From contig JAUCBJ010009013.1 in the NCBI GenBank assembly GCA_032718475.1, positions 1 through 54,668 on the forward strand: DNA of 54,668 nucleotides, in the 5' to 3' direction. A model generated the notes under the pieces. That model ran no database searches and was not told where the DNA came from. It was given only the letters and a program-made list of their open reading frames with translations. Position 1 is the stretch's first letter. Every line of letters begins with the position of its first letter. This DNA is from Nemertoderma westbladi (taxonomy: Eukaryota > Animalia > Xenacoelomorpha). The translations under genes and the position numbers were made by a program. Of the stretch, positions 6,370 through 52,673 are shown in pieces.

Positions 6370-6482
6370 ATATGTTAGGATATGTTTCAAAAATTCGTAT
6401 TTTTGGTCAGAAAATGCGCTACCCCCCCGGTAGCGCATTTTCTGACCAAAAATACGAATTTTTGAAACATATCCTAACATAT
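6370..6482. repeat. Perfect 54-bp inverted repeat with a CCCCC loop
   Basis: 6370-6423 is the exact reverse complement of 6429-6482. Confidence 0.95.
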
Positions 6483-6941: not shown

Positions 6942-7872
6942 CACTGGGGAACACAATTTTTGTTGAGTTAGATCTGACAGTTGTTTTTAACTAATTTTGG
7001 GCTGCTGAATCCAAAAATGATATCAGTTTTTCTCTACCACTTTTTGAACTATAGGATCATTCGCTTTATTTTAAATATCAGAAAAACTCTGCGGTTAAAA
7101 GATACATAAAATATAATGTTTTTGACTATTGCATAGATAGAGATCAAAGACATTGCATTACAACGTTTAGAAATTAGGTAATAGCCACATTAAGGTTATT
7201 ATAGGGATATATGGCTACTGAAAGTATGTTTTAAGGTAAAAATTTACGCTTATAGCTTTTCCTTGAGTGTTCAATCCTTGGACAATCGCGCTTGATGCTC
7301 CAGCAATAGTCCGCCATCATATGTACATCCCACCTACCCTGATAACGCTCTTCCATGACCTTCAAATCTTGGTGAAATCGTTCACCCTGCTCATCACTGA
7401 CAGCACCAAGATTTTCCGGGAAGCTATCAAGGTGACTATGAAGAAAGTTCAGTTTTATGCTCATGTTGCAACCGAGTGCTTTGTAGCTATCCAATAGTTT
7501 CTGGACAATTTTAGCGTAATTCTTTGCTCTTGTATTTCAAAGAAAGTTCTTTATGACATCTTTGAATGATAACCAAGCTTTTTCCTCCAGTTGCGACATG
7601 GTCCCGATGAAATGTTCATCCCTGGTGAGCTGCCGAATCTGTGAACCGTCAAAGACACCGACCAGCCTTGATCTTTTCAATGGACAGCCCAGGAAATACC
7701 AAGGTGAGATACTTGAAACAGTCGCCTTCAGTTGGTAGTGCTTTGACGAATTGCTTTATGAGACCCAGTTTTATGTGCAGAGGTGGGAATATTATTTTAC
7801 TCCTGTCAACAAGTGGGTCATATAGAATATTGGGATCTCCAGATTTGAGGTCAGATCTTGGAGGCCAATAGG
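6942..7872 (-). mobile_element. Chapaev3-type (CMC) DNA transposon, 3' half
   Basis: Transposase motifs PPLHIKLGL.KQFVKAL, KIKAG.FDG.QIR and MS.K..FLHSHLD.FPENLGAVSDEQGERFHQD...ME.RYQG.W. Terminus CACTGGGGAACA at 6942. Confidence 0.85.
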
Positions 7873-8047
7873 AAATACTGGAAATATCGAGCGACTCGTC
7901 CGTTAATTTAGGATCTTCGGGTTCAGAACAAAGGTTTGCTGTTTCAGCTCGAAGAAGCAGTTCTCCTCGCGATCCAGAGGTGGAAAGATTCCGATTGCTC
8001 AACAAAAGTTTTAGTCGCTTGGTGTTCATCTTTTTAAGTTTATCCAT
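7873..8047 (-). pseudogene. SAP-motif N-terminal fragment in frame with the Chapaev remnant
   Basis: MNTKRLKLLLSNRNLSTSGSRGELLLRA fits the SAP consensus. Confidence 0.6.
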
Positions 8048-8395
8048 TTTATTGAATCCCAAACCCGGTACGACGAGTCTTGTGTACGACGATATGGTAA
8101 GTAAAATGACAGTACAGTACCGGTAGACCGTTATTAAAACTGCAGCTACCGTATAGCACCAATGTGCCGGTGCTGCAGGGTACAGTACCACTAAAATCAA
8201 TGAAGGTAGTTAAAATAAATAAAAGGTAAAACTACAAAATGCTACGACCGGTTCCTGGACCGCGAACGGGTACAGGCTCGTACGGTAAAATGAGTCAGTC
8301 TGACTGCGTCGGTTTCAGCATTTGTCAATGCAGATACAAATCAAGATACCAATCAACGTAAGGTTTCAGTCAATTAGAGTTAATTAGAGTTAAAG

Positions 8396-10883
8396 AATAA
8401 CCGCGGACCTCCATATCAACTCTCTAATAACCGCGGACCCCCATATCAACTATCTAATAACCGCGGATACCCACCCATATCAACTCTCTAATAACCGCGT
8501 ACCCCCATATCAACTCTCTAATAACCGCGGACCCCATATCAACTCTCTAATAACCGCGGACCCCCACCCCATATCAACTCTAATAACCGCAGACCCCCAC
8601 CCATATCAACTCTCTAATAACCGCGGACCCCCACCCATATCAACTCTCTAATAACCGCGGAACCCATATCAACTCTCTAAAAACCGCGGACCCCCATATC
8701 AACTCTCTAATAAACGCGGACCCCCACCCATATCAACTCTCTAATAACCGCGGACACCCACCGTCATGCCCCACCCCATATCAACTCTCTAATAACCGTG
8801 GACCCCTATATCAACTCTCTAATAACCGCGGACCCCCATATCAACTCTCTAATAACCGCGGACCCCCACCCCATATCAATTCTCTAATAACCGCGGACCC
8901 CCATATCAACTCTCTAATAACCGCGGAACCCCACCCATATCAACTCTCTAATAATCGCAGACCCCCATATCAACTCTCTAATAACCGCGGACCCCCACCA
9001 CATATCAACTCTCTAATAACCGCGGACCCCCACCCATATCAACTCTCTAATAACCGTGGACCCCCATATCAACTATCTAATAACCGCGGACCCCCACCCA
9101 TATCAACTCTCTAATAACCGCGGACCCCCACCCATATCAACTCTCTAATAACCGCGGACCCCAACCCATATCAACTCTCTAATAACCGCGGACCCCAACC
9201 CATATCAACTCTCTAATAACCGCGGACCCCACCCATATCAACTCTCTAATAACCGCGGACCCCCATATCAACTCTCTAATATGCACGGACCCCCACCCAT
9301 ATCAACTCTCTAATAACCGCGGACCCCCACCCATATCAATTCTCTAATAACCGCGGACCCCCATATCAACTCTCTAATAACCGCTGACCCCAACCCATAT
9401 CTACTCTCTAATAACCGCGGACCCCCACCCATATCAACTCTCTAATAACCGCGGACCCCCATAACAACTCTCTAATAACCGCGGATCCCCATATCAACTC
9501 TCTAATAACCGCGGACACCCACCCATATCAACTCTCTAATAACCGCGGACCCCCATATCAACTCTCTAATAACCGCGGACACCCACCCATATCAACTCTC
9601 TAATAACCGCGGACCCCCACCCATATCAACTCTAATAACCGCGGACCCCCACCCATATCAACTCTCTAATAACCGCGGACCCCCATATCAACTCTCTAAT
9701 AACCGCGGACCCCAACCCATATCAACTCTCTAATAACCGCGGACCCCCACCCATATCAACTCTCTAATAACCGTGGACCCCCATATCAACTCTCTAATAA
9801 CCGCGGATCCCAACCCATATCAAATCTCTAAAAACCGCGGACCCCCACCCATATCAACTATATAATAACCGCGGACCCCCACCCATATCAACTCTCTAAT
9901 AACCGCGGACCCCCACCCATATCAACTCTCTAATAACCGCGGACCCCCATATCAACTCTCTAATAACCGCGGATCCCAACCCATATCAACTCTCTAATAA
10001 CCGCGGACCCCCACCCATATCAACCATCTAATACCCGCGGACCCCCATATCAACTCTCTAATAACCGCGGACCCCCATATCAACTCTCTAATAACCGCGG
10101 ATCCCCATATCAACTCTCTAACTAACCGCGGACCCCCACCCATATCAACTCTCTAATAACCGTGGACCCCCATATCAATCTCTAATAACCGCGGACCCCC
10201 ATATCATCTCTCTAATAACCGCGGACCCCCATATCAACTCTCTAATAACCGCGGACCCCGCCCATATCAAATCTCTAAAAACCGCGGACCCCCACCCATA
10301 TCAACTCTCTAATAACCGCGGACCCCCACCCATATCAACTCTCTAATAACCGCGGACCCCCATATCAACTATCTATTAACCGCGGACCCCAACCCATATC
10401 AACTCTCTAATAACCGCGGACCCCCACCCATATCAACTCTCTAATAACCGCGGACCTCCATATCAACTCTAATAACCGCGGACCCCAATATCAAATATCT
10501 AATAACCGCGGACCCCCACCCATATCAACTCTCTAATAACCGCGGACCCCCATATCAACTCTCTAATAACCGCGGATCCCAACCCATATCAAATCTCTAA
10601 TAACCGCGGACCCCCATATCAACTCTCTAATAACCGCGGATCCCCATATCAACTCTCTAACTAACAGCGGACCCCCACCCATATCAACTCTCTAATAACC
10701 GTGGACCCCCATATCAATCTCTAATAACCGCGGACCCCCATATCATCTCTCTAATAACCGCGGACCCCCATATCAACTCTCTAATAACCGCGGACCCCCG
10801 CCCATATCAAATCTCTAAAAACCGCGGACCCCCATATCAACTCTCTAATAAACGCGGACCCCCACCCATATCAACTCTCTAAT
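8396..10883. repeat. Minisatellite array, ~31/35-bp units AATAACCGCGGACCCC(CACC)CATATCAACTCTCT
   Basis: About 75 head-to-tail units (estimated from length), two length variants, no unique spacers. Confidence 0.98.
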
Positions 10884-23045: not shown

Positions 23046-23174
23046 ATATTATATATATATCACGCTACACTGAGTAGCAGTATCGGTAATTAATTACTAG
23101 GCTAGCAGTTAATACTGAATTACTAGACTTACTTAGACTGTAATAGCAGTAGACATTCAACTGTGTAAACAAAC

Positions 23175-26100
23175 ATGTCTGATACTAAGCAGAACCTGTC
23201 AGACAGTGTATTAGATGTAACTATCTGCGACTCAGATAAGGGTGTAGAACCGTCTAGTCCTAAGTTCAGTTCACCTCCCACTGTGAGGAAAGTCATCCCT
23301 CCAGTAGTAATAACAGAACCTAGGCTGGTCCAACATCGTAGGTCTATCATAGGCACTCGAGCCCAGGTCAAGCGGGACCAAGAAGCAGCGGAACAGCAAC
23401 AACCCGTGAGCCAAGAACTTATTACTCAGCGGCCCGACAGCTCCAGTAGTGAAGATACTGTAGAACTGACACCCCAGCGCGGAGCAAGGATGACGGATGC
23501 GGTTTATTCGGATCCACTTCTCATCCTTCCTGCAGCCGTACTCACCAGGTTATTGATCGCGGTGGAAGAACACCAGATCGATTGGGCGCGAAGTAAGCGC
23601 TCAACTAAAGATAGTTATGCAGGATACACAAAGGAAGAACTGAAATCTATGGTCGAGTCGCAATGGAACTTCCCCGGACCCGGACTCCCATTTGATTTAT
23701 CAGAAGCTGCCTGGGAAGACATACACCGGATGGGAGTAGCCAAGGAAACCATCGATCCAGCTGTGTGGAAGAGGTCCGCAGCCGGATACGCACAGGGATT
23801 CTTCAGCTCTATGGAGCAAGTAGAAAAACAACTGTTACAACAACCTCTAGGACCTCAAGAGCAGGGACAACTGCTTTATCAAGTTAGAGAAAGAATTCTG
23901 CGAATCAGGCTAATATTATCAGCCTTTGAAGAGGCTTCTAAAAGAAGACAAGACACGTCGTTGCAAGTTGCCGTAAAGACTTGGTTTCAACGGGTGAGTC
24001 GCCAGGTTCAAGGAACAGCTCAGTGGAAAGATCAACTGGAGGAGCGCTCAACCCATGGAGAATCAACAGACGCTACTTTTTCCCAAGTGGAAAGTGAAGC
24101 GACGGCAGAGAAACCGCATAAGAGGGATGCCATTGACATCTATCTGTCAGACTATCAACGTTTTGTAGGTGATGAAGAGTTGCGGAGAAGACTAGAGGGA
24201 CTTAGTCCTAATAGTGAAGGAGCACAGCGTGTGCTTGACGCCATCGACGTGGATAGGTTAGCGGCTAATCAAGCTAAATTCGATGAACAACTCCGCATCG
24301 TTAAGGTTCAAGAAGAACAAGTAAAGAAAAAACGTATAGAAGATAGAAAGAAAGCGGCAGAGGCAGCGGCAGAGGCAAAAGCGGCAGCGGCAGAGGCAAA
24401 AGCGGCAGCTGCAGCAGTAGAAGCCGAAAGAAAGGCGGCCGAAGCGGAAAGAAAAATAGCAGTGGCAGAAGCAGAACGGAGGGCATCTGAAGAGACAACC
24501 CAACTAGAGTTGGAAAATCTTCAAGAGAGACAAGACAACGTTAATAAACAGTTAACAGCTAGTAATATGCAGATGATGAATCGATCTACTCCCAAAAGAC
24601 AGGGATATACATCATCTGAGGAAGGCGATACCACCGATACTGAAGGCAAGGGAAATAGATCTCACCTAAGCAGACGTAAAAGAACATTCCACCGTCAGAA
24701 ATTGCCTGATTTGCCACCAGCTGTTAGAAGGCAACTAAATAACACCAACTTAGGTAGTACAGAACCCACAGACCAAATAATTAAAATAGAAAGACTCCCT
24801 ACTATAGTAGATGAGCCTGAAATAATTAGGCCTGTTTTTGAAATCACCCCTTCAGTGATAGACACACCTGTGCTCCCTGAAGCTACCTCTAAATTCCCTC
24901 TGCACAGTACTAAGCTATCTGTGCCCAGTAGAACAGCCCATGAGACAGTTCAGGTCCTGGACCCCGAGCGAAATATTCATGATTTGTCGCCCGTTGTCCC
25001 TCGTCCGCCCGCTACAACGTTGGCGACTCCCGCTTCGGCGGTCGAATGGGTGGACGAGAGACGGCGGGGGATGGATCTCCTGCTCGGGCAGATGCAGGAG
25101 ACTGTTCAGCAATTCAAGGGCACAGTGAGGGAAAGTAGGCTAGAGTTGCAAGAAGTGCAGCAAAGTATCGCGCTAGAACGCGATAAATTAGTAAATTTAC
25201 AAAAGGGTATACCACCACCCCCTGTAACAATGTGTCAACCTGTTAGGTCTGAAGTATCTCATGCGCAAGGTGTGGAGCCTACACGCATATATACTGCTAG
25301 CGAAGTAGAAACTCCTATAGTGAACCCTATTAAGGGTAATTATAGACCTGTTGATAATGACATTCCCTATAGACCTGATCATAATCCGAGAAATTTATAT
25401 ACCGATAACTCGATATTAAATAACACGATGGCCCAAGAAAGTTTTACGCGTCAAATGGCTAGAACCGAAGCCCGGCAAGCGGTGAAGGTGGGAGAGATCG
25501 TCAAGTTCAATGGAGATGAGATGAAATGGTTACCTTTTAATGAATATTACAAAGATAACATACAGAACTCTGTACTATCTAATGGAGAGAAACTTAGATT
25601 CCTCATCGAGTGCTTGGAAGGATCTCCCAAGTTAATGGCGTTAAAGTTTATTGGACATCCAGACGGATTAAGACAAGTTTGGGATACACTAAACATCAGG
25701 TATGGTAATAGGAATAACATAGCTGGGTATTTGTATGCAAAGTTAGTAGCGCCCCGAAAGTTTATGAGCAGCGGGATTATAGAGTTTTCCGATGAGATTC
25801 AGGAGATCTGCAGACAATTAGATTGGCTAGGTAAGTCTCATGAGTATCAGAGTGCTATGGTTATTAGAGCAGTGGCTTCTACTTTACCGAAGGGTGGAGT
25901 AGGTACACGCTGGGATAAGAAAGTGTTATATATGATGGAACAACAACGACGAGACCCTACCATGGCTGATCTCATGTCGTTCTTAGATGGAGAAGTGAAA
26001 TTACAGCTCCTAAGGCAGTCCAGAGAGAAGACACTGGAAAACAAGGTAAGTGAGAAACCCGTTTCTAGGAGAAGGGTAACACCAGTGTGTTATACAGACG

Positions 26101-27527
26101 ACGGCGAAAGCCAGACTTCTCAAGGAGAGGATAGCGGGAAAGACACTGAAAGATCTTATTATGTCAATAAAACGCCTAAAGACCAGGTAAGTAAATTCAA
26201 GTCTAGAACCAATGACAGGAGAGAACAGGTAAGAAAAACTCCTCCTACGTCTCCCAAGAGAATTCAGGTGAGAAAGCCCGAGGAAAGAACGAACGTGCAC
26301 CACACAGCACATGTTAAAGTAAGTAACATCAAACCCAAATGTGTGCTGTGCGACGGGCCCCACCGCTTGAATATATGCGATGAATTCTTAAAGAAATCAT
26401 TAAAAGAGAGACGGGAAGTCATGTGGGATAAGCGGTTGTGTTATAATTGCCTCAGACGAGGACACCAACGGCGAACCTGTTACTCCGACGCAAGGTGTGC
26501 AAAGTGCGGTGTGAAACATCATATCTTGTTGCACACTGAATTCGAGCGAAATAGTCCGAGTCAGGTGAGTGATTCCGAACTACATGTCCAATTCAGTGAT
26601 GTGAACGACACTGATCAATCTGAGATGGAAGGATTCTATACGGACGAATTCTCCGACCAAAACGAATCCTGTTACTTAATAAACACCACCGCAGTGTATC
26701 GAGCACTCATGTATGAGAAAGACACAGACAGCGACCTCACCCTAACTACTTCAGATCAACAACAATCTTGGAAAGCGCCAACTTCAAATGTAGGAATCCG
26801 AGAATTTCCTGTAGTCCAGTTACGGGTCCACGGACCTCAGAAGAGCTATATAGTGAACGCCCTCCTGGACTCCGGCAGCACAGGAACATTCATCGATAAA
26901 GAACTAGCCGACGACATCTTTGCTGGACAACCCAAGTTCCGAACCAAGCTAAACATGTCAGGGATCATGCAGGTTTGGAAATCTGCTGTGGCTGCCGACT
27001 ATTATATAGGTGAGTTGTCCACTCCACAGGATAAACTAGGAGAATACAGTCTAAGGTCAGTAAAAATGGTGGCAATAAAGAACTTCGCTACCACCCAAGT
27101 GGAACCTTATAATTGGGACGAAGATGATCATGTCCAACAACTTAACATCCCTAGATTCGACACCGATTATCCTGGAGTACAAATATTAATCGGTCAAAAC
27201 GCGCATGAGGCGCTGGAGACATTAGAGAAACGACCTACTCAACCGCAACCACTTCAGACCTATGCGGTAAGAACTAGAGTAGGTTGGTACCTTACTGGAC
27301 CTTCCCGTAGAACGCTCAGAGAAAGACTGCTTCAAGATCGCGTCTGCCAGGTGAGTGAATGGGAAGATGATACTAGTGAGGGAGACGACCCAACTGAGGG
27401 AACACCATACTCCTCAGATAATGACGATATTAGCTCCAATGTAGATCAATGGAGATATTGCCCCAAGAACTCTCCGGGGCGACGGCTCGCTATCCGTCCT
27501 CGTTCTCCGGTCGTTAAAACAATATAA
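23175..27527 (+). CDS. gag: BEL/Pao Gag-protease polyprotein, truncated before RT
   Basis: DUF1759-like KFNGD...W..F...Y; three knuckles (CVLC...H....C, CYNC....H....C, CAKC...HH.LLH); ALLDSGS; ILIG; RTRVGW.L.GP. Uninterrupted 1450 aa. Confidence 0.93.
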   Translation: MSDTKQNLSDSVLDVTICDSDKGVEPSSPKFSSPPTVRKVIPPVVITEPRLVQHRRSIIGTRAQVKRDQEAAEQQQPVSQELITQRPDSSSSEDTVELTPQRGARMTDAVYSDPLLILPAAVLTRLLIAVEEHQIDWARSKRSTKDSYAGYTKEELKSMVESQWNFPGPGLPFDLSEAAWEDIHRMGVAKETIDPAVWKRSAAGYAQGFFSSMEQVEKQLLQQPLGPQEQGQLLYQVRERILRIRLILSAFEEASKRRQDTSLQVAVKTWFQRVSRQVQGTAQWKDQLEERSTHGESTDATFSQVESEATAEKPHKRDAIDIYLSDYQRFVGDEELRRRLEGLSPNSEGAQRVLDAIDVDRLAANQAKFDEQLRIVKVQEEQVKKKRIEDRKKAAEAAAEAKAAAAEAKAAAAAVEAERKAAEAERKIAVAEAERRASEETTQLELENLQERQDNVNKQLTASNMQMMNRSTPKRQGYTSSEEGDTTDTEGKGNRSHLSRRKRTFHRQKLPDLPPAVRRQLNNTNLGSTEPTDQIIKIERLPTIVDEPEIIRPVFEITPSVIDTPVLPEATSKFPLHSTKLSVPSRTAHETVQVLDPERNIHDLSPVVPRPPATTLATPASAVEWVDERRRGMDLLLGQMQETVQQFKGTVRESRLELQEVQQSIALERDKLVNLQKGIPPPPVTMCQPVRSEVSHAQGVEPTRIYTASEVETPIVNPIKGNYRPVDNDIPYRPDHNPRNLYTDNSILNNTMAQESFTRQMARTEARQAVKVGEIVKFNGDEMKWLPFNEYYKDNIQNSVLSNGEKLRFLIECLEGSPKLMALKFIGHPDGLRQVWDTLNIRYGNRNNIAGYLYAKLVAPRKFMSSGIIEFSDEIQEICRQLDWLGKSHEYQSAMVIRAVASTLPKGGVGTRWDKKVLYMMEQQRRDPTMADLMSFLDGEVKLQLLRQSREKTLENKVSEKPVSRRRVTPVCYTDDGESQTSQGEDSGKDTERSYYVNKTPKDQVSKFKSRTNDRREQVRKTPPTSPKRIQVRKPEERTNVHHTAHVKVSNIKPKCVLCDGPHRLNICDEFLKKSLKERREVMWDKRLCYNCLRRGHQRRTCYSDARCAKCGVKHHILLHTEFERNSPSQVSDSELHVQFSDVNDTDQSEMEGFYTDEFSDQNESCYLINTTAVYRALMYEKDTDSDLTLTTSDQQQSWKAPTSNVGIREFPVVQLRVHGPQKSYIVNALLDSGSTGTFIDKELADDIFAGQPKFRTKLNMSGIMQVWKSAVAADYYIGELSTPQDKLGEYSLRSVKMVAIKNFATTQVEPYNWDEDDHVQQLNIPRFDTDYPGVQILIGQNAHEALETLEKRPTQPQPLQTYAVRTRVGWYLTGPSRRTLRERLLQDRVCQVSEWEDDTSEGDDPTEGTPYSSDNDDISSNVDQWRYCPKNSPGRRLAIRPRSPVVKTI

Positions 27528-27616
27528 AACATATATAGATTAAATGTGTATACAAACTAGGGATAAAAGAAGATATAATGAGGAAAAGCAATGAGCAGAT
27601 GGCTAGTCTGTTGTTT

Positions 27617-28276
27617 TCACTTCTTCATTTTGGCCCTGGCTCCAGGCCCAGTACCTCTGTTCATAGGTGGAAGTTGTTGATGTCTCGCAAATCCATCTGC
27701 ATTAACCATAAGGGCATCTGTGTTTCCCATGCCACCCAATCCAATATCTTCTTTGCCGCCCATGGCTCCTTGGATGTTGTCATCACTAGTGTCTACATCA
27801 TCCTCATGTTGGTTTTCATCATTGCTGTCACTCATGTTTTCATTGATCTCCTCATCTTCTTCAGGGAATTCTTCTCCATTCAAGACTCTCAGTTGTAAAA
27901 TAAGGTTGTTCATGTGCTCTCTCACGACATTGTCCTCAGCCCTTTGTTCCCTGGCAGCCGGTTCCTGCTGGCCTTGTTGTTGTTCTGCATTGTCACCTAC
28001 TGCAAAAACAACATTGCTTAAGGCTCCTTTAGGTATTCTTACTTTATTCTTGTGAAAATTGGGACAGTTGCCAGTTGAAGCGAGCTGATGTACAACATGT
28101 TCTTGGTGCGATGTGGACTCTTTGTCCCCGCTTGCTGGCTTCATCTCTTGTAGTCTGGCTATGGCCTTGAATCTTTCTTCAATGTTCAATCCAACTAGGA
28201 TCAATTCACTTCCTGTCAGCTCATAGCAAGAGGCACCCATGATAAATCGGTTTAAGGACATCTCCGCCGGGTTCAC
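27617..28276 (-). other. Non-TE ORF with an acidic tail; candidate negative-strand RNA virus nucleoprotein C-terminal fragment
   Basis: Open 219-aa frame with a helical-looking first half and a D/E/N/G-rich tail, starting abruptly where the BEL integrase stops. The viral assignment is by loose resemblance only. Confidence 0.35.
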
Positions 28277-31200
28277 TATCTGGAATTAGACCTGGAAGGT
28301 CAGTCAGACGATATCCACTTAATAATTGTGACGGTGTGATGGGATGAAGATCTTTAACATCAGAAGTCACGTAAGTGAGATGTCTATCATTTAAAGATGC
28401 CTCTATTTCAATAATAATCATGCGAAGCTCATCGAGTTTCACCCGAGCATTTCCTAGGACACGTTTGAGGCAGGTTTTAGTTGAACGAATCAAGCGTTCC
28501 CACATTCCACCAAACCAAGGGGATGCTTGCAGTATAAACTTCCATTCTAGGTGTCTATCAGCTAAATATTGTTGTACTTTCAAGTCTGTTTGTATACTTA
28601 AAAGAACATCTCTAGACGAAGTGAAAGTAGATGCATTATCACTCAACATAAGTGACGGATAACCTCGTCTGCCAACAAAGGAACGAAATGCAAGAATAAA
28701 CTGTAAGGGAGTATTGTCTGAAACTAACTCTAAGTGGATTGCTCTCGTTGACGTACAAGTAAATAACGCAATATATACTTTACGTCTTAAATTCCTATCT
28801 TTAACAAGTACAGCCCCGGTGTAATCAACACCAACAGTATTATATGGTCGTTGAGGCTTAACTCTTTATGGCGGTAAGGGTGGAACTGGTGGTGTACCAT
28901 AAGGCTTACCCTGAACTTTTAGACATGGGACACATTTACGAATAATCGAATGGACTCATTGCCGAATACAAGGAATCCACCATCATTGACGTATATAAGC
29001 GATAGTACTTTGTGTACCTTCATGAAGATTCCTAATATGGGCTTCTTGTATAACAAGCTTAGTGAAGATATGGTTCTTTGGAAGTAATATCGGATACTTC
29101 GACTCTATGGAGATATGTGAATTTGAAATTCTACCACTACTCTTAATTATATTATTATCTAAATAGAGCTTCAATTGCTTTACAAGGGATGGCACTTTAG
29201 TAGTATTAGTTGTCTTATTAAGCAAGAACTGAATTTTGTCACTGAATGATTCACCTTGGACTTGACGCACCCACCAAAGCTCAGCTGCTACATACTCAAT
29301 TGCGGTGAGGAACTGTTTCTTCACCATGAGACTAGAAGAAGTATCATTCTTTGAAAATACACTTTATTTTAGATTACAAATAAATCTCAAAACCCAACCT
29401 GTTACTCGTAACAAGCGGTTGTAATTACTGAATGATTCCAAGGAAATAGCTAAAGGTTGTCGAGTTTCAGTTACTACCCCAACCATGTTAGCTGTAATAT
29501 CATGAGCACTAATATCTTCAATACCAGAAAAGAGTTTCTGTTCGGGCCAATCAGTAGGCGTAGACAACCATTGTGGACCATGCCACCATAGAGTTGAGGA
29601 TTGCAGAGAATTGGATGATGTACCCCTAGAGAGGAGGTCAGCAGGGTTATCCTTACTCTGTACATGTTGAATCTTAGTATTAGGTACAGTAGACTTTATA
29701 AGACGATTTATTTCAGATGCACGTCTTTCAACATAATTCTTTAACGGTTTGGTAGTTACTATCCAATACTGGACGATTTCACTGTCAGTCCAAAGGAAGT
29801 AATTAACTGACTGGGAACAGATATTTCCATAGACATTTACAACGTAGGACAATAAACGCATACCAACATTTACTGCAGTGAGTTCCATTTGTGGAGTAGT
29901 GGTAATGGTGTCGGAAGAAGATTACTGGGCACCTTTTCTAATTATACCTCGTTTCTTTAACGGTATTACCTTATCTTTAGAAATAACCAGTTGGGGTTTA
30001 CTGGAATCATTAGTTACATAAATAACAGCACCATATGCTTTTGAAGAAGCATCGGTAAATACGTAGAAGGAACATTCTGGACCAATGGGCTCTAACTGAC
30101 AGGGGATACTACACTTAAATATGGAATACATATTAGTAGCAATAGTTTGCCATTTACTTATATAGTCGGGTCCTAATTTCTCATTCCAATGACATTGTGA
30201 TTTCCATAAATCTTGAATAAATTATACGAGAAGTGATTGTGACAGGGTTAAAAATTCCAAGAGGGTCAAAATATTTCGCAGTGTGACTCACTACCATTCG
30301 TTTAGTTAGATAGTCAGCTGGTTCAAATACATGATTCTTAAATTCTAGAACATCCTGAGAAACATTCCATCTCAATCCAAGAACTTTAGCAATATTACTT
30401 GAGGATTTGGGATTGTCACCATTTGTAGTAATTATTTTCGATAATTGAGGACTGTTAGTAATCCACTCTCTAAGAGGGAGTTTAGCCTTTGAAAATATTT
30501 CTATACAATCGTAATAATACTGAATAATTTCAGACTCGGTAGAAAAAATACCTTGTAGGTTATCTATATATAAATTCTGGAGAATTTTCTTAGCTACGGG
30601 AGATAAGTATCTACCTAAATGCTCACGAATTGTAGCATTCAGAAGGTACTGACTACAGGTTGCTCCGAAGAGTACAACTTTAAATCTATAAGTAACGAGT
30701 TTACTATTAGTGTTAAATGGATTGGATGGCCATAAAAATCTGGTCGCATCACGATCAGTAACATTTAAACTTAAATGTAAGTAGGCTTTTTCGATGTCAG
30801 CCAACACAACATAAACAAATATTCGAAATAGTAATACACAAGTTATGAGTTCTGGAGTAAAACACTGACCGGTATATAAACAGTCGTTTAAACTGGGTGA
30901 CTTAGGCCCTTCCTTAGCGGAACAGTCAAAAACTATCCTTAAAGGAGTTGTTATGGATTCTGGCTTCTCACTCCGTGATGAGCCAAATAATGCACACAAA
31001 TCGGTATTTTAACATTATCTACTGGTAATAATTCAATAAAGTTACGTTTCAATTGATCTTGTATAACATTATGGTATGCAGAAAGTAAATCGGGTCTCTT
31101 TCTTAATTTAGTCAGAGTGAAACACAACCGTTTATAAGCCAAATTATAATTATTCGGCAATTTGGGATGATTGGGTCGCCATGGTAACTACACACAATAA

Positions 31201-32906
31201 CTGCCATTCATAAATTTCAAAGTTTCTTGAAATTTAGAATTAACAACTTCATCTACGGGATTTGGTGTATCGGTACAAATACCAATACTATCTAAATCCC
31301 ATAAACGACATAGTAACATATCTAGATTATCATGAGATTCAATAGCACCAACTGATAGTACAGAAGAAGCTACATTAGTTGTAATAACAGAAATATCTGG
31401 ATCACTACAATCAATAGTGGTACAGGCCATGGGAATTCTGCCTGCAATAACTTCACCAAAAATAGACACGATATAAACCACTGGGTAACTTATCCGCATA
31501 TACAAATTCATAATAGTAATCAATACCAATAATAATAGATATATCACTTAAATTATCACCTGGTAAGGGGTCTGCTAATATTATACCTTTGAGATAAATA
31601 TTATCTAAAGCACGTGTACGACCAGGTACTATAAAACGTGGAGGTAGGGAATTAACCAAAAACGCAAAGACTGTTATACGTTTCTTTTGAGTAGAAACCT
31701 CAAACATAACAATCTCATAAAGTTGTTGTTCACCTAACACATTAACACCATCGATACTAGTGTATATACGATCTACTACAGGTAAATCAAATAAAGTGGC
31801 TAATTTACTTAACATCAGAGTCCTCTGAGACCCTGTATCTAATAATGCCCGAACTTTAGAAATCGATTCATCTTTACTCCATATCGGTATATATGCTGTA
31901 GGCACAAGTGAAGAATATTTGGTGTTAAATCCAGACTTATTAGCTACCGCAGATGACACTACATTATCAGCAATATTAGAATTATCTACACTAGATGATG
32001 CTTCGCTTTGGTTATTTGCACTAGAATTGCTATTGCTTGCAACTTTATTATGTGGTTTAGGTCTATTGTTACGATCCAAATGTAATAATGTATGGTGGTT
32101 TTTATGACAAATTCCACAAACATTAGAATTAGGACAGGAAGTTCCTCTTTCATGATTGGGTCGCAAGCAATTAGTGCATAATTTTAATTCTTTAACACGG
32201 TAATATCTATTCTGAGGAGTATTATATCTATACAGGAAACACGACACTTTAAATTTATTAAATTGTGACCGCTTTCCATCTGAAGTTTGGGCGATAGGTA
32301 ATGAGGTTGCAGTACCGGTACCCATCTGATATAGCGATTTATCGTAAGGGCAATTTATCGCCTTCGGTGTCGGCAGCAAGTAGTTGCTCAATTTCCTGCT
32401 GTAAAGCAGTCCGTAGTGAATCTAGCTCCCAACAGGTGGCGTGGGCTGCATGGTTAATGTCGTTGCGAACTTTAGACGGTAACTTCCTGACCAAAAATGC
32501 AGCAAACACGAAACCAGCACCTTCTACATCAGCGCCCAGATGTTTCAATCCACGGAGGTGGGATTCATAGACTGCGTGGAAAGTCGTTAAATCTTCCATA
32601 CTCGCATCTGGTTCCTCTATATCAAATAGAGCGTTTAGGCTTTCTTACCATACGTTTCCTCTAATAATTTAACAGCCTCGACATAGTCTGAGTCTGTCCG
32701 ATGAAAGCCAGCGACCATTTTCGCAGCATTGCCGCTTAGCTGGCCTTCTAAATAATTGAACTTGGTGGCACTGCCAATTTCAGAACGGCAGTGCACTGCG
32801 TCACAAAAGCGGTCCCAACAATAGGGCCAGTCTAAAACGTCTCCAGAAAACGTAGGTAGTTTTAGAAAACGTAGGTAGCCACATCCTATATTCACAATAG
32901 CCCTTC

Positions 32907-32924
32907 ATCCGGGTCCAGGCACCA
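32907..32924 (-). promoter_or_regulatory. Primer-binding site, tRNA-His-like
   Basis: TGGTGCCTGGACCCGGAT lies 3 nt after the LTR end and resembles the complement of the tRNA-His 3' end (TGGTGCCGTGACCCGGAT, from memory). Confidence 0.75.
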
Positions 32925-32927
32925 AAA

Positions 32928-33413
32928 TGTTATGGATTGACCAAAACATGAAAATAAATAGATATATAAAATCTTATTATATTTTCCGAGAATACCGAGC
33001 CTACTTCATTTCATAAATCAGTATATCACACAACTGAAATACTAACAGAAATCAGATCTTATATTGCAGTATCTGACTAACGATACCGGTAATCACTGAA
33101 TAACTAAAAGAACTACAGTATGAAAAAGGGTCCCCTGTAAATGCAATATATTTTGCACAGCGGCAGACTATGGATCTTCAGACTACTTATTCTATGTCTC
33201 CGTAAAAGATATGGCCTATGCCGTAGTAGATGCCTACCGAGTTTAAACCTATTCGGAATGAAAATAACAAAGTTAGAGAAGATGTTAATTTTCAGATCAT
33301 ACGCCCTCTAGCGGCAGACTATGGAACTGCAGATGGCTGAATATAGGTAAGTGTAATTAGTAATCAGAGGTGTCACGAGAGGGGGGGGGGGGGGGGGGGA
33401 GCGCTTGGATACA
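32928..33413 (-). repeat. 5' LTR of BEL element 2
   Basis: On -, it runs TGTATCC...CCATAACA followed by TTT and the PBS. Confidence 0.7.
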
Positions 33414-33424
33414 ACTATTATTAA

Positions 33425-36270
33425 TAAGCTGAGCCCAGCGTCCGGCCGATCAGGATCGGTGAAGTTCTGTACCGGCTCACCACGAACTGCCTCACCTCGG
33501 CCACTAAAATGGACTTTATAACTGAGTGTGGGGCGGACCAGCTCTGTGCAGGAGTGAAGGCTGGGATTGAAGGCGCGGTCCACGCGATGTCAGCGATGTT
33601 TGAGCAACCCTCCACCGAGTGTATGCTCCTCGATGACGCCGCAAATGCCTTCAACAGCCTGAGTTGTCCTGTGGCCTTGTGGAACGCGCGCGTTTACTGG
33701 AACCGGTGCTCCCGGTACCTGTATAACGCTTATAATGGCCACACAGCCCTCTACCTACAGGGGTCTAGAAAACCACTGTGGAGTAGGGAGGGCTATACGC
33801 AGGGCGACCCGGCCGCCATGCTGGGCTATGGCTGTGGGACTCTCCCCATGGTCCGCTCGCTGAGGGAAGTCGGATCACTAACGCCCTCTAGCGATCCGCC
33901 ACCCTGCAACCTGCCACTAAGACTCAGTGATCCGCCACCCGGTGACCCGCCATCCAGCGATCCGCCACCCAGAGACCCGTCGTCCAGCGTCCCGCAATCC
34001 AGCGACCAGAAACCCAGAGATCCGTCGTCAGACGACCCGCAATCCGGCGAACCGCCACCCGGAGACCCGCCACCCTGCGACCCGCCACCCGGTGACATGC
34101 CACCCTTCGACCCGCTACCGGCCACCCGCCACTTGGCGACCCACCATCCGTCGACCCACCATCCGGCGACACGCCATCCATTGACCCGCCACCCGGCGAA
34201 CCGCCACCACCCTTATGACCCGCCACTCAGACTCGGTGACCCACCACTCAGACTCGGTGATCCGCCACCTGGCGACCCGCCAACGAGGCACCTGCCACAC
34301 AGAGACCCGCCACCCTGCGACCCGCGACCCAGAGACCCACTATCCGCCAATACGCCACCCAGAGACCTGCTACCCGTCAACACGCAACCCTGCTACCCAC
34401 CACCCAGAGACCCGCCACCTGTAAGTACCACCTGCTGGCAAAAGCAGTGTTGGTACGCTGATGACGCCTCGTCAGCGGGGTCCGTCGCCGGAGTGTGGGA
34501 ATGGTGGGAGGAGCTGCGCCACTGTGGACCCCGAATTGGCTACAAACCGGAGCCCGCAAAGAGCTACCTTGTTGTAAAACCGGAGTACGCGAGGAGGGCG
34601 ATGGAGGTGTTCGGGGATTCTGGAGTCCGGATCGTATCCGGCCACCGTTTCCTCGGTGGTTACATGGGGGACTCCCAGGGACTGCGGGAGTTCATAGCGG
34701 AGAAAGTGGCGGGGTGTGTTGCGAGTATCGCCCAGGTCTCCGAGGTGGCTTAGGAGTACCTGCAGACCGCCCACACTGGTATGTCCCGCTGCATCCAGGC
34801 GGAGTGGGACTGACTACCTACTCCAGGTGGTGGAGACAAGGGACGAGGATCTGGAGCCAATCCGCCAGGAGCTGTTGCGGCGCTTCATCCCGGCCCTCTT
34901 TGGGACTTCCCCCAGATCAGTGGATGAGGAGCTCGTCCTCCTTCCTGTCCGCCATGGTGGGATCGGGATCCGGGACCCCCTGATGCGGAGGGTTCACGCG
35001 AGGGAGGCGTCGCTATCTGGGACTGCTGGGGTGGTCGAGGCACTGACGACTGGTTGTCCCCTTAACGTTGCTGACCACTCCGCCTGCCTCGCCTCCGCGT
35101 TGGCTGCGAGTCGCGTCGCCCAGGACGCCACCTATAAGGCAGCGATGGAGTCCGCCATCCAATCCGTCCCAGCCGAAAGGCGCCGTACTGTGGACTGTAC
35201 GGTGTCCCACAAGACGGGTGGGTGGCCGTCGGCGCGCCCTCCGTGGTCAATAACACTGACCTGGCCCCGGAGGTGTTCCGAGACAACCTCGTGCTGAGGT
35301 ACGGCCTCACGCCGCCCGGCCTCCCGGCGAAGTGTGAGGGGTGTGGGGAGCCATTTACGACAACCCACGCCCTGAACTGCAAGTCGGGTGGCCTGATTAT
35401 AAAGCAGCACGATGAGGTCCGGGAGGTCTTCAGGGTCCTTATCGCCTCTGCCTTTGGTGGGTCGTGTGTGCAGCGTGAAGTCACGCCAGTGCACCGGCTA
35501 CCAGGACAGAAGGGGCTGCGAGGTGGGAGGAGTTAGGGCTGATCTCCTGGCGAGGGGAGTCTGGACCGAGCAGAGGGTGGCGTCTTTCGATATTGCAATC
35601 ATAAACGCCGACGCCCCCTCATATGCTCACCGGTCCTTGGACTCTGTCCTCGAGCAGTGAGTCCGAGCCAAGAAGGTGCACTATAGCGCGGTGTGCGAGG
35701 ATAGAAGGTTCTCCTTCACCCCCCTTGTCGGAACCACCGATGGGGTGTGGTGCAAGGAGACCGATACCTTCATCAGCCACCTCGCTGAGACCCTTGTGGC
35801 TCGGCGGCAGGGGATGCGGGATCGTGGCCTAGCCTGCGTTCTCGGGGGAGTTCGGAGGCGGCTTCAGTTCGCGCTCCTCCGCTCCAACTCCTTCTGTTTG
35901 CGTGGTGGACGGCGTCCCTGGAGGGCGCTGGGCTTTGGGGATGGTGCGGGTCTGCGTGGGAATGACCTCGCAGACCATTATTAATTCACGGTGCACCATT
36001 TTTAATTGTATGTTAAATTTTATTGTCTTAATTGTTTTGTTCTGATTGGTGGTGGGATGCTGGTGCAGTTTTATATTTAATTTTGGTTTTATGGATTTGG
36101 ATATTATACTAGTTTTTCTTATATTATTATATTATATATTATTTATATTATATAATAATAATATAATATAGTAATATAATATAATATATTTAATAAACTA
36201 TAATGTAATAATAACTATAATTATAATAATTTTATCATTTATTTGTGCAATAATGATAATATAATGTTTC
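33425..36270 (+). mobile_element. CRE-like non-LTR retrotransposon (RT plus restriction-like endonuclease), 5'-truncated and frameshifted
   Basis: VRPI.IGEVL.RL, QLCAG...G.E.AVH, DAANAFNSL, QGDP, WYADD, LPVRHGGIGI, CEGC...H...C, RAD...FD, and an AT-rich tail after 35984. GC-rich against its flanks. Confidence 0.9.
33885..34420 (+). repeat. ~15-bp degenerate tandem repeat (GACCCGCCACCC...) encoding DPPP
   Basis: Visible in both the DNA and the 414-aa ORF, between QGDP and YADD. Confidence 0.9.
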
Positions 36271-45272: not shown

Positions 45273-47578
45273 CTATGATAACAGATCAGTTAGTTCATCA
45301 AATGCTTCATCAGTTTCATCCCCACTCTCGAGCTCCACAGATCCTCCTGAACTTCCCATCCAGTCTCCCCCCTCCACAGATCCTGTTGTACTTTCCACTC
45401 CGTCTTCCACATCCTCCACAGATCCTCCTGTATTCAAAACGTTGTCTTCTACACCCTCCATAGATCTTCCCGCAACCGCCACTCCTCCAAAACCTGTAAA
45501 TTAAAACTCATTTTTAACGTAATGCAACGATAAAAATTCAAATCATCAAACAAAGGCGTAAGTAATTATCATAAAAACAGATTTAAAATAGATAAAATTA
45601 TATTTTCAGGAATTGTCAGGTTGTTAACTATTTTGATAGTTGGAATTATTTATTAAATTATATAAAATGTGTATATCATGTGTCAAGTCAACACTTGCAA
45701 TGAAGGAAATTCACTGCCACCTCGTTTTTAAAGTGAATTCAGATTTATTTTACATTGAATTTACATTATTTTACATTGAATTTACATTATTTTACATTGA
45801 TTTAATAATTAAATAATATGATAATATTCAGTTATTCTGATACAACTTTAAGCTTTTCGAACCTGCTAAAAATAACTATACCACTGCAGGTCCTGCAATC
45901 CGTCTTTAGGTCCTCGACATTATGCGCTGCGACATTATGCCCTGCATCGTTAGCGTTAGGAGCTGTAAAATACAGCAGTTTTATTCGCAGAAAAACACTA
46001 TTGCCAGAAAAAAATTAAATGTAAGATGTAATATTGACTCAGGTTTGTTATTGATTCGAATAACAAACATGCCACTTTATCCTGATCTTATCCCATATCC
46101 CCTAAGGACACCAGGATATTGAACAAATGTGCCGATTCTCATTAATAAACTTGGCTTTAAAAATTAATTTATTTCACAAAAAATTGAGTTTATTAATGAT
46201 AAAATTACTGTATTTCACTACTCGAAATCTCGAAATTCGAAAAATCAAAATATCGATTCCGGGACATTCATAAATATAATTTAATTGTGAATTATGCTCA
46301 CCATTATCTTTATCAGATTGCACAATACGACGATTGTCAACCAGTTGGCGATGCGCTTTAAACAAGGCTCTCTTAAGGGACGACTCTGTGAAGTCTGGGC
46401 GATTAGAATTAATCTTCAACAACATAGGGAATACAGTTTTCATCAGGGCGAGTTTCCCAACATCTTTGTTACCATGTCCTCTTCCTGACATTGAACATTC
46501 TTTCGCAAATTCTCGCGATATTAATGACTTAACTTGGAGCCCAACAGTTTCTCGGAGTGAGCTACCCCCTTTCTTTGAAAGACTATTAATAACTGAAGGG
46601 TTGGATATCATAAACTCCAAGTCAGCACTGGATTTTGCTGGATTTACGACAGTTTCTTGAAAGGAAGTGGTAATTTCCTCTGTTTCGTTGTTCTCTTTCA
46701 TCAAGTTAGCAAGTTTATTTAACCTTTTGTCTAAATTTCCAATGCGGACACAATACGAATGTAGTGTTGATCTATTCATAACATTTATTTAGGAGGTAAT
46801 TCGATTCTGCGAGTTGTCGGTCTGTCATTGACTTAACATCCACCCTATATTTGGGATCAAATTCGCCTTGGTCTTTCAGCACAGATACTAAGTTGGAGGT
46901 TGAATCCTGAGTTGTTGAAGTCACAGGGAGTGATGGAGTCACAGGCATGGCCCTTACAATATTATGCTCCATGACATTGGTTTCTGGAACATCGCCAATA
47001 TGTGGAGAAGAAGCGCGTACAACATTCGCATTGGACATTAAAGGGGAAGCTATGTTTTTACGAGAGTATGTTTGGGGTTGAGAGTTATTTGGATTTATAT
47101 ACAACGATGAAGGAAACGGAGGATTGGGAATTTGTGTATGGACTCGTGTTGGTGCACTAGGCTTTGATATAGACCTGAACCGCTGATGTTGAGGGCGGTT
47201 AGTTTCATCACATGACGAAGATATTGGTTGACCTAATGCGGAATAGGGATGAAAACGTAGACGATCTCTTGTATTGGGTAAAACTTTGTCAGGGAGTGAA
47301 GACGCAACCTGTTTAAAGCTGAAATGCTTTCGCTGCATTTCCCGGGCTTTGTCCAACACAGCCATGAAGGACGTATCATTAACTGAGCCATGAGACAAAA
47401 TGAGACATGTATATATTTTCCCCTTTTCTTCCCAATTCACATCATATGTGCCACTAAATTTCGGCTTAACCGAATCGATAACTTCTCGGTCAATATTTAC
47501 AGTAAAGTAACTCCTATTTGTTCCTTCACGGCAATATACAATAGCATCAGTATATATTGGTGTGGTCGACGAATCCAT
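45273..47578 (-). pseudogene. EnSpm accessory gene (DUF4806-like), spliced, with one frameshift
   Basis: ORFs 46772-47578 and 46174-46779 overlap out of frame. Motif GG.SLRETV...K.LIS.E.A...SM.GR..K. Donor GTGAG near 46299 and acceptor TTTACAG near 45494 on -. Confidence 0.65.
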
Positions 47579-47674
47579 GACATATATGTTCTATATATTA
47601 TATATAAATATATATATAGGTAATTAAAGATAGGCCTATAATTTTAACTGCCAAGGTTCCGTATAATTCAGTAA

Positions 47675-49727
47675 TTAGTTACACAACACACTAATATAAT
47701 AAACATTATCGTTTCTGAAAGTCATGGGCATGCATATACACTCAGCGAAAGTCTGAGATGTCAAATTGTTCAATATTCTATCCGGTGAAGGAATTTTAAA
47801 AAAACCTTCACCATAATGAGAACTTTTGACTGGTTGAGTGAAACAATCGTTTAGAAACTCCAGACGCTGCCCAGTTAAACTTATAATCTTATTATCTTTA
47901 CTATGTTCTACATGGCAGATCAAAATAAACATGCCATTTACAAATATGCAATTTCCCTTTCCAATCTTTGCTCCATGGGTATTTTCCGGTGAAGCGGAAC
48001 TCACTCTATCAAAGCCCTTGTTTATTACCTCTTGAAGCATCAGATCAATTCTCTTTGTTTTAATGCTTCGTTTTATAGAAGACATATAATTTTCGAAAGA
48101 GAAGGCACTCCATCTATCAAGTGCACCATACAAGGAACAAAAATATGCCAAGTGTGTTATTAAATGCATATTAAATGTATATATAGCAGGGGTATAAAGC
48201 TCCTCAAGACCACTATGAAATGTTAATATAAGATTATGTGCATATTCAAGGTAATTTGGTGAGCTTACCAATTGCATAGACACCATAATTCGGAGCGCAA
48301 CATGAATATGCATAAGGTTATTAACATAAATATCAGGCAGAAAATCTACCAATAAAGGGCAAGCATATAATATAAAAGTTCGAAGTTCAGTGGCCTTAAA
48401 ATGATTAATATCATTAAATCCTCTAAGCTTACGATTGAATACGAGTGGCATTGACAACCCAAATGACTGGAGGAGAGAATTTAGAACTGCCTTAGTACTA
48501 GGTTTCAAGACACATGGCAACGGATGCTTTCTATTACAGATTGAGTCAGTAGTAACCCAACAATGTATTAACTGCCTCACAATACCTAGACAGACACAGT
48601 GCATATAGTCAGGAGGAATTTGAGTACTCAGTTTTAAGATAGATCGCAAAGGAGTTAACGAATATTGGTGATGTGAATCAACAATATTCATATAATCCGA
48701 GTCAGTTCGTAGTGGCAAACTATGGTCTGGGTAAATAATTTTGCTCCGTTTTCTCGTAGCATTACCGGTACCAGTACTTGATACCTGTCCTCTGGATGTT
48801 TGATACCTACAACCCCAAAGCTTACAGTAGGTGCATGGGTCATAAGAACTGTGGCCCTTCACACAAAGAACCATACTGCGCGCAGGTGAGTCCATTATAG
48901 CTATTCTGTATTTCACATCATTATTCAAGGAATAGTTAGTGAGATACTCCAATAAACTCCATATATAGGTTTATATTACTTGGCTTTGTAGTACCAATCC
49001 AAAGAGCTATTTGAAAAACTTTAACAACTACACCTAATATGCCACTTCCACACAACTCAGACTTCAGTTCAACACTTCCAAGAATAGGCCAAAGCGCGTT
49101 ATTTGAAGATTTCGAGATAGGAAGACCATCGATATTAATGGTGATTACTTCCCCCTTAAACTTTTCAGGGATTCCAAAAAAAACCATTCGCCCCCCTGCT
49201 ATATTTGAAATAGAGGATATGCGACTTTTTAATTCCTGAGGCGTGTTTTCAGAGTGGTTGATGCGCAAGGTTTTTGCAGTTCGTGGAAGATGCTTTGACA
49301 CATGATAATGCAAAATATTTAAAAGATCGGAAGCAGCATTGTCAGACACTGAGCTGTTGCCTTTTAACCAATTTAAAATCGCACACAAATTATTAGTTTC
49401 AATACAGCTCGTCTTGCCTGATTTCGTATACTTTTTGGTGGAAGCGTCATCAATTATAAAATCAGCCTCAGAAGAAGAGTTATCAGAATCATCTGAATAA
49501 TATTCAGAATCATTAGAATCGGTTTCTGTATTATTACTTGAACCACGTGCACCCTGATCTAGATCAAAGCTGCTGAGTGTGTCATGGTGGCATGATGGTG
49601 CATCCGTTTGAACGTGGAGGACTGAATCAGGATTGGATAGGCCTAAGCCAATGGCCTCAGATACAGATATTAAATCCTCAACAAGCTGCAGCCTTCGCTT
49701 TCTATATTGCTGCATTCGGGAAGCCAT
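47675..49727 (-). pseudogene. EnSpm/CACTA transposase with a single frameshift
   Basis: INIDGLP..KSS....WPILG, DSPAR....KGH..Y..C..C, DYMH...LG, KATELR.F.LY, N.H...HL, SAF.FEN. Frameshift near 48950. Confidence 0.92.
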
Positions 49728-50548
49728 TAAACTCCAAACTGGATCTCAGACTTAAAATTTAATAAGTAAAAAAAATAATTATATACAATATATTCCTATC
49801 CTATACAATATATCCTATAGGCCTATAGGCTGTCCTATACAATAATTCGGGCCCGACGAATTTGTACAAAAAAATACAAAATAGTACAAATGACAAAAGA
49901 ATACAAAAGAGTACAATAAAGTACAAGTACAACTAGTACAAAAGAGTGCAAAAATAGTACAAAAGAATACAAACGATTGAGAAACGCTTGCAAAACGTGT
50001 ATCCATGTGTAGTTCAAATCGTTTAGGGGGGCGCACATGATGTGCAAAATAAAACAACGCATTGTCTGATTGTGGGGCGAGCCATGAATTGAGCAGGGGC
50101 TGATCTACCTGTGTTTTAACAGACAAAAGAGTACAAACGAGTGAGAAATGCAAACAAAACGTGTATACCAGCAGACCAGTGTAGTATACACTACACTACA
50201 CTTGTATACAAATATAATTAATTGTAAGCAAATGCAATGGCACCTAAATATGCGCCGCTACAGCTGTACAGTGTCAATCACCAGCGGCCTTGGTTCTGTG
50301 GTCAGTATGAAATTATTGACATAACTTTGATTCATGTAGATTTTGACAGGCATACAAGTAGAAATAGGCTCTACAGTTCGTATAATACAATATAATGCAA
50401 TACATACTATGCACTATGCAGTGGGTAGATAAAACTCCTATAACTGAGATTCAGAATTTAGGTCATAGTCTTAAAGTAGCCCATATACTGAAGGATAGAC
50501 TGAATGCTACATTGTTATGTGTAGGCTATGTCGCCCGTATGCTAAGTG

Positions 50549-51102: not shown

Positions 51103-52673
51103 TACTTAGCAGAATGGGCTATGTCGTGTGTATGCCTCTATCTGCAACTTTATTTCTCCCTCTGCAATTTTGCGGGCTTGGGACCGTTTTTTGTGTTTTT
51201 TGAACACAAAAAGCTGCATTAAACAGTCACTGATCTATGCCAAAATTGGCATTTTTCAAAATTGGAAGTTTTCATGCCAAAATTGGAATTTTTGATATAT
51301 TTTCTGTCCAGGGTCAGCCAATATTGGCTGGGGTTAACTAAATTTTGCAAAAAATTATATTTTGATGCATTTAGAAACTTTTGACCGAGATAAAAAAAAA
51401 TTCACCATGCTTTTGGTTTTTTATGATTAAAATTTTGATACTGTGACCTCTAGTTCCAAAATTGGAAGTTTTTGACCTGCCGTTTTTGGCATTTTTTATT
51501 CTGATAGAGGAAGAGGGGGAGGTGGTCATGTGGTTGTAGTTGCTGAGTTGCAGGCATATATCTGTATATTGGTATATTCAGAATTCAGATATTACCGAAC
51601 TTTTGTTGTAAATGTGTCAGTGTCATGCCATGCTGTGACAGCTGTGATCGTGTGACAGTGTGATGTGACATTATACATTCTAGTGACTACTGGACTACCT
51701 AAGAAATGCCCTGGGCTGGGCCATACGCCCATACAACAATGTCAGATTTGATCACATTATCAATTTCAATACCGGTACTTTGTCTCTGTTTGTGTTTAAC
51801 TACCCGTATACATTCTGACATTTTTTTAACAATTTGCTATCACCATCACCTGCTTAGCTTGAAGAAGACTCAGTTCCAGTTTTTGTATTAGTGTAAGTAC
51901 TTCCAGACAGCCAGGGGCGGTCATTCATTACCAGTGCCTTTTGTTTTATTAAATGCCGACTTTGTGCCACATATCTCAGTCAGGAACACTGGTCACATGT
52001 TGTCCATGTTACAGCCAGAATGTGTCCGCGGAAAACGCCCTTAGAGTGAAATTTCTCCATAGAAATCAATGCTAAATTTCATTTGAAAACTGGCATTGAA
52101 GTTTTAACATTGGCATTTTAAAAATTATACCATTAAAATCGCCATAAAATTCTGTATAGATTAATTTGAGAATTACAATCTCAGCATTGGGATAACTATA
52201 ATTAATATTTAAAATATAAAACGGTCACATTATGTCCGAAAACGTGAATTGCAGCCAAAATGTGTCCGGCTTATGCTTTGAGTTGTTGTGGTGATTGATG
52301 TATGTCTTACGGTGTTTAATCAGCCAATCATTGTTGAGTGGCCATATAGCACTATATCAGTATAGTGTGTGATAGTGGGTTTATATTCCTTAGTGCGCAG
52401 TGAAGTGTAATCCATAATCTGCCAATCATTATCTGTAAATGTGCATGTACTGTTGTTACTGTATATGAGCTTTGTATCGACATGACGAGGTGATGTTACT
52501 TTATGTACAGTATGTATATTCGTTTTACATTATCATTAACATTTATTGTTTGGGTTCCTTCTGTAATTCTATTCTATAGTTTCATAATTTAATTATCTAG
52601 AACTACTATTTCTTAAATTGTTTATGCTGTAAATTATCATATATAGTTATCATTATCATACAAATACTGAAAT

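Follow-up and report, generated by a model that had tools for sequence, protein, structure and literature searches.

What is the open reading frame that lies between two broken BEL/Pao retroelements in the genome of Nemertoderma westbladi, and how did it come to be there? We addressed this question in contig JAUCBJ010009013.1, all 54,668 nucleotides of which are called the window here. The window is transposon-dense DNA, in which the elements BEL1 (plus strand) and BEL2 (minus strand) face each other with 758 bases (28273-27516) between them, referred to below as the insert. A first-pass annotation had proposed a nucleoprotein endogenous viral element (EVE) of an RNA virus, fused to a BEL/Pao integrase and related to Jingchuvirales or Mononegavirales. 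A negative-strand nucleoprotein EVE among BEL/Pao elements is still the best reading, but the virus family named there is likely wrong. Judged from sequence comparisons, the insert, which lies between two broken BEL/Pao elements, is probably a fossilized nucleoprotein gene. Its donor would be a segmented negative-strand virus, so far undescribed, from the arenavirus/nairovirus group (Hareavirales). Its DNA copy was likely made by a retroelement reverse transcriptase.

Coding content and relatives of the insert

The insert frame runs from 28273 to 27617 on the minus strand and comprises 218 codons and a stop. From stop to stop it has 222 codons, the first four of which are contributed by BEL2. 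Base shuffling left a frame of this length free of stops in 2 of 2000 trials. The insert consists of the following parts:

27995..28273, minus strand: conserved core of the frame (codons 1-93), 36-37% identical to the homologs P0001 and P0002; 5' end cut; contains E-H-V-V-H-Q
27617..27994, minus strand: acidic tail of ~125 codons, rich in Gly, Asn and Gln, with the stop; D+E 22%; W, Y and C absent
27516..27616, minus strand: AT-rich stretch of 101 bases after the stop; 28% GC, no CpG; in the same low-depth contigs as the frame

A HMMER search of 1.84 billion representatives returned two matches at E up to 0.001, P0001 (E 3e-8) and P0002 (E 5e-7). Both are single-member clusters, one labelled hypothetical and the other nameless, and no named viral protein was among the matches. 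In tblastn, the P0001 match begins exactly at 28273 with P0001 residue 69, leaving 68 residues of P0001 upstream. The insert and its two homologs have ~90 residue columns in common, 24 of them invariant, and their tails are unrelated. Word-indexed searches found no homolog, and searches of viral, metagenome and prokaryote contigs found no relative. PHROGs gave nothing meaningful; in the ESM Atlas the window protein had no usable match, and the best value for P0001 was 0.83.

The invariant residues of this small family resemble what we take to be the end of the arenavirus/nairovirus nucleoprotein core. Test sets comprised 29 mammarenavirus NP and 4 nairovirus N, plus 15 bornavirus N fragments to control for the pattern proposed at first pass (3, 3 and 2 of them, respectively, checked with Pfam). 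In 23 of the 29 arenavirus proteins, the best match of a profile of the insert, P0001 and P0002 covered the end-of-core helix, each time in the same register; in four it lay elsewhere, and two gave no match. Seven of the 29 scored above 0 bits, compared with 13/870 shuffled and 0/29 reversed sequences, and the best score was 7.7 against a shuffle maximum of 5.0. All four nairovirus proteins scored above 0 bits at a single place (shuffles, 4/120); these scores are small, given that one of 55 other frames in the window reached 3.8 bits, above every nairovirus score. None of the 15 bornavirus fragments scored above 0 bits. Comparison of profiles by hhalign gave P 0.0076 over 30 columns for nairovirus, with 0/108 column shuffles as good, and P 0.086 over 80 columns for arenavirus (11/108); for the arenavirus and nairovirus sum, the count was again 0/108. 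The corresponding values for bornavirus were P 0.37 and 58/108. The arenavirus and nairovirus profiles matched each other with P 0.069, at another place, although the arenavirus core and the nairovirus head are described as mutual closest structural homologs (PMC7411964).

A short motif provides a second line of evidence. E-H-x-x-H-Q is invariant in all three family members. Its exact form EH(L/M)(L/F)HQ is described as a conserved nairovirus motif, in which H453 and Q457 line the RNA crevice and H456 is fully conserved (PMC4926184); H453 is also reported to line an RNA pocket in PMC5602631. This exact form is present in P0001 and P0002 (0/200000 shuffles for each) and in 4/4 nairovirus N. The window insert retains E, H, H and Q with V-V between them, and this relaxed motif arose in 5/200000 shuffles and once in 109,332 translated positions of the window. 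Moreover, 30 residues separate the motif from the C-terminus of nairovirus N, and the distance to the last invariant column of the insert family is likewise 30 residues. On these alignments, codons 1-93 probably correspond to the final third of a nucleoprotein core of the arenavirus/nairovirus type. No exonuclease domain was detected in the insert tail: against a profile built from the C-terminal parts of 29 arenavirus proteins, it scored -3.0 bits.

The dinucleotide composition of the insert is also foreign to the window. Observed/expected ratios in the frame are 0.30 for CpG, 0.49 for TpA, 1.66 for TpG and 1.38 for CpA. CpG and TpA are 0.80 and 0.91 in BEL1, 0.76 and 1.00 in BEL2, and 0.77 and 0.96 as window medians, and none of 541 sliding 657-base windows was as low as the insert in both. 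Low CpG and TpA fit an animal RNA virus and are also seen in many host mRNAs. The AT-rich stretch at 27616-27516 meets the BEL1 gag-protease frame, which bears out the earlier description of a 3'UTR-like stretch abutting a truncated BEL1; it is likely viral 3' untranslated sequence.

Several results weigh against this identification. The target family was chosen on the look of the invariant residues and tested afterwards, so the P values above are not blind. Arenavirus NPs are also closely related to one another, and the 23 matches in 29 cannot be counted as independent trials. Twenty-two of the 29 arenavirus proteins scored at or under 0 bits. The signal depends on the homologs, as the window protein alone gave P 0.79 against the arenavirus alignment; with arenavirus and nairovirus profiles on single family cores, 15-500 of 500 shuffles were equally good. 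Pfam gave no arenavirus or nairovirus match at E up to 10, and among PDB sequences there was no nucleoprotein, the top match being an unrelated 3C protease (E 0.075, 16.5 bits). Two AlphaFold models had pLDDT 40.0 and 38.6 and were unusable; with such pLDDT ~40 models, Foldseek found no match at E up to 0.001 in BFVD and PDB, and the best VIA-align Z was 5.2, to ferredoxin-like folds, results that are uninformative as to the racket-shaped head and stalk fold of nairovirus N. The comparison with viral nucleoproteins suggested at first pass gave weak targeted matches to arenavirus and nairovirus proteins, whereas blind Pfam, PDB and Foldseek searches found none. The nucleoprotein matches are weak, and at database scale nothing is significant. 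Taken as protein family alone, we consider it likely that the insert encodes a nucleoprotein of the arenavirus/nairovirus group; we go no higher because the family was picked ahead of the tests and the proteins within each test set are closely related.

Flanking elements, junctions and copies

The flanking elements and the two junctions are as follows:

23169..27515, plus strand: BEL1, BEL/Pao gag-protease frame truncated downstream of the protease; its family has a very high copy number
27513..27516, no strand: insert/BEL1 junction, tail to tail, bridged in the comparison runs X1, X2 and X3
28273..28274, no strand: BEL2/insert junction, one shared base, out of frame
28274..33159, minus strand: BEL2, decayed BEL/Pao copy with partial 5' long terminal repeat (LTR), gag, protease, reverse transcriptase and an integrase cut at 28273

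BEL1 is a single intact frame of 1452 codons from 23169, in which ~780 residues precede DUF1759 (Pfam E 6.5e-11) and the aspartyl protease match is weak. No BEL1 reverse transcriptase occurs within the window. BEL1 may be a gag-protease-only element. Its family reaches a summed depth of 2e5-1.7e6 in X1-X3, roughly a thousandfold that of BEL2. The family match stops at 27513-27515, and family contigs leave the window at 27511-27515 and continue into low-complexity sequence.

BEL2 has broken frames with Pfam matches to Peptidase_A17, RVT_1 and rve, and is without ~1 kb of its 3' end, including the 3' LTR. It differs from its family contigs by 1.6% substitutions, several indels and a 520-letter loss, and a family contig links 28273 to 33159 via 805 letters absent from the window. 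Only the 3' part of the 5' LTR is present (33159-32958, ~208 bases), followed by a primer-site-like stretch; a high-copy repeat cuts the LTR at 33159. The integrase frame (28865-28221, minus strand; rve E 5.7e-6) ends just after HPITPSQLL...LPGLIPD and the same strand enters an unrelated open frame (28273-27617), as noted at first pass. The two are joined at the DNA level only and not "fused" as had been claimed: the frames are offset by one base and the integrase frame terminates 17 codons past 28273, which excludes an in-frame integrase-insert fusion protein.

Four sequencing runs of the same organism, each holding part of the window, were compared; the insert was found in X1-X3, which represent two samples from two studies. 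Contigs cover the insert and its BEL1 junction in these three runs, extending to 27480, 27482 and 27484 (32-36 letters inside BEL1), and the contigs of X4 do not cover the insert. These contigs place the insert in the DNA of more than one host individual, attached there to host sequence.

At 28273 the picture is different. Beyond this position, the insert contigs of X1, X2 and X3 carry 1284, 385 and 1421 letters that are not in the window, and BEL2 family contigs continue into their own 3' end without the insert. No contig among those listed for the four runs bridges 28273. Insert and BEL2 contigs both end there and overlap by one base only. Since the two sides share one base, microhomology beyond chance, which had been suggested as a check on the junction, was rejected. 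Capture by the integrase-bearing element is likewise unsupported at 28273, where the two frames do not match and a longer form without BEL2 exists. A later deletion likely produced this junction; we infer that the BEL1 junction is the older one and that the BEL2 junction was cut later.

Some of these data count against that order of events. Depth over the 3' part of the insert exceeds that of the long contig by a factor of 1.7-1.9, a ratio that fits one form going on and one form that may end at BEL2. Contigs show presence only and drop rare forms, so absence of the BEL2 junction from the samples cannot be read from them. The longer form is presumed to continue the gene past 28273.

In a second form of the insert, ~2.6% different, codon 118 is a stop, and frame-shifting insertions (1 and 10 letters) occur at 27886 and 28214. 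Two of the 14 listed substitutions are silent, where 20-27% would be expected without selection; purifying selection on one form would predict 33-42% (P(<=2) = 0.11-0.03). Five of the 14 are packed into 13 bases and possibly reflect a single event. The copies look to be drifting neutrally. A third, parent-like copy was not found among contigs at 85% likeness, with copies differing by <3%.

We therefore propose the following course of events as a hypothesis. A viral S-segment RNA would have been copied in the germ line and then joined tail to tail with BEL1. The antisense orientation at the BEL1 junction would fit a copy of the genomic minus strand, or a ready-made copy inserted into an abundant element. 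The insert would then have diverged into at least two forms ~2.6% apart, drifting without selection, and a deletion in the form seen in the window may have joined the decayed, integrase-cut BEL2 to the middle of the gene, with loss of the 5' part. Mosquito EVEs are proposed to arise when LTR elements reverse-transcribe viral RNA and switch templates (10.1101/127498). The insert would yield no working nucleoprotein, as most of the core is missing and the integrase frame stops after 17 codons; a protein role of any kind is unlikely for so incomplete and drifting a fragment. Read from BEL1, RNA of the insert would be antisense to the viral message and could hypothetically serve as a source of PIWI-interacting RNAs (piRNAs).

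Elsewhere in the window, a GC-rich, non-LTR-like reverse transcriptase remnant (33428-36000, plus strand) has no Pfam match, has motifs that we take to be CRE-like and contains a 15-base repeat array coding a proline-rich run. Broken, DNA-transposon-like frames lie at 46174-49745 on the minus strand, with weak DUF4218 and DUF4806 matches. A SET-domain frame (4759-5295, plus strand; E 1.4e-11), possibly transposon-borne, overlaps a 163-base tandem duplication. A perfect inverted repeat of 54 bases with a 5-base spacer occupies 6370-6482, and a strongly C-skewed array of 30- and 34-base units (8366-10830) adjoins a SAP-domain frame (7649-8209). An open frame of 511 codons at 52671-54206 (plus strand) has no Pfam match. 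No Rfam or tRNA match was found anywhere in the window.

Alternative origins of the insert

The proposed viral origin could also hold with BEL2, and not BEL1, as the captor. The viral message would then have been copied into BEL2, or behind it, with matching polarity; the original junction would have been lost afterwards in a deletion, along with ~1 kb of BEL2 and >1 kb of the insert. Mosquito EVEs are reported usually to share the polarity of the closest LTR element (10.1101/127498), as the insert does with BEL2, and the far end of the longer form is unseen. However, none of the listed contigs links the longer form to BEL2, and BEL1 provides the one junction bridged in three runs. We regard BEL2 as an improbable captor.

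We give about the same small chance to a non-viral source, in which the insert is a dead lineage-specific host gene, or an accessory gene of another mobile element or a DNA virus, and resembles nucleoproteins by chance. Host mRNAs can show the same dinucleotide bias, the blind searches were all negative for viruses, and the contig of P0002, at 19.6 kb, is too long for an S segment, though another EVE would fit too. On the other side, the insert matched no cellular, phage or transposon protein, no parent copy was seen among contigs at 85% likeness even though the copies are so similar, and both homologs carry the exact nairovirus motif at the expected distance from the domain end.

An assembly error at 28273 is less likely still. 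It would account for the lack of a bridge among the contigs listed for four runs, but short junction contigs between 200-deep and 50-deep paths are often dropped; depth is ~200 for BEL2 family contigs and 27-121 for the insert. The 1.7-1.9-fold depth ratio suggests that only one of two forms enters the longer contig. In addition, the insert and its BEL1 junction were found in two independent samples.

Least probable is a chuvirus or mononegavirus N gene captured by the integrase region of a Pao element: the acidic tail and foreign dinucleotide make-up would fit, and mosquito Pao elements carry chuvirus genes, but 409 of 428 chuvirus EVEs are reported as glycoprotein and one as nucleoprotein (PMC7642597), the join is out of frame, bornavirus N (the nearest set for the Y/LTG/E..F/PNF pattern on which this assignment was based) behaved at chance, Pfam gave no match to N of chuviruses, rhabdoviruses or paramyxoviruses, and 17 of the 21 residues quoted for that pattern differ in at least one homolog, leaving four (one L, H, Q and G) identical in both.

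Comparison with known viral nucleoproteins and EVEs

The segmented-virus nucleoprotein favored here shares features with two families. Like nairovirus N (Pfam PF02477), it has the RNA-groove motif EH(L/M)(L/F)HQ, relaxed in the insert, with ~30 residues of the conserved domain still to follow; PF02477 itself is not matched by the insert, which is only a fragment, and the alignment covers ~30 columns. Nairovirus N ends where the insert adds its 125-residue acidic tail. The likeness to the arenavirus NP core (PF00843) extends over 80 columns at residues ~244-328, the end of the core, and the family block ends where that core ends; PF00843 itself gave no match, however, and P is only 0.086. Arenavirus NP is described as having a DEDDh exonuclease after the core (PMC7411964), in contrast to the low-complexity acidic tail of the insert. 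No polymerase fragment was found in the window. We file the insert under neither Nairoviridae nor Arenaviridae because Pfam gave no match above the cut-offs, no exonuclease was detected and no polymerase is at hand, L-protein RdRp phylogeny being the basis for placement in Hareavirales. Mypoviridae and Wupedeviridae, compared by description only, are invertebrate relatives in the same virus group with a monocistronic S segment (PMC10770932), and so resemble the putative donor in host and group.

A broader interpretation is tentative, and we think it somewhat more likely to be wrong than right. The insert, P0001 and P0002 may be fossils of an unsampled family of invertebrate negative-strand viruses, whose nucleoprotein combines the nairovirus groove motif with a core end like that of arenaviruses and has an acidic tail where the exonuclease would be. 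Such a family would be a living or recent link between arenavirus and nairovirus nucleoproteins, its genomic minus strand captured by a very abundant BEL/Pao element, with antisense piRNAs possible. The donor may be a new viral lineage: among the 1.84 billion representatives no named protein comes near the fragment, which resembles two nucleoprotein families that barely match each other by sequence. If so, it would be an unsampled branch near the arenavirus/nairovirus root, bearing on the timing of the arenavirus exonuclease gain, and copies <3% apart would make the germ-line infection recent enough to seek the virus in RNA data. Literature titles and abstract openings mention no arenavirus-like NP EVE in an invertebrate, most subscription papers lying outside that scope.

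Taken together, the insert is likely a virus-derived fragment joined directly to BEL/Pao DNA, low in copy number, decaying and antisense to BEL1. Anakin-type Pao elements differ in that they are intact and repeated and enclose the viral gene between their LTRs; the BEL2 family contigs listed continue without the insert. By analogy, the arrangement is comparable to that of arthropod nucleoprotein EVEs, including the nairovirus N fossils known from ticks, other chelicerates and the Etruscan shrew (10.1101/2023.10.26.564176), and the insert would likewise preserve the remains of an N gene in a host genome. Many nucleoprotein EVEs next to LTR elements have been described, which makes the setting unremarkable; it is the donor that is unusual.

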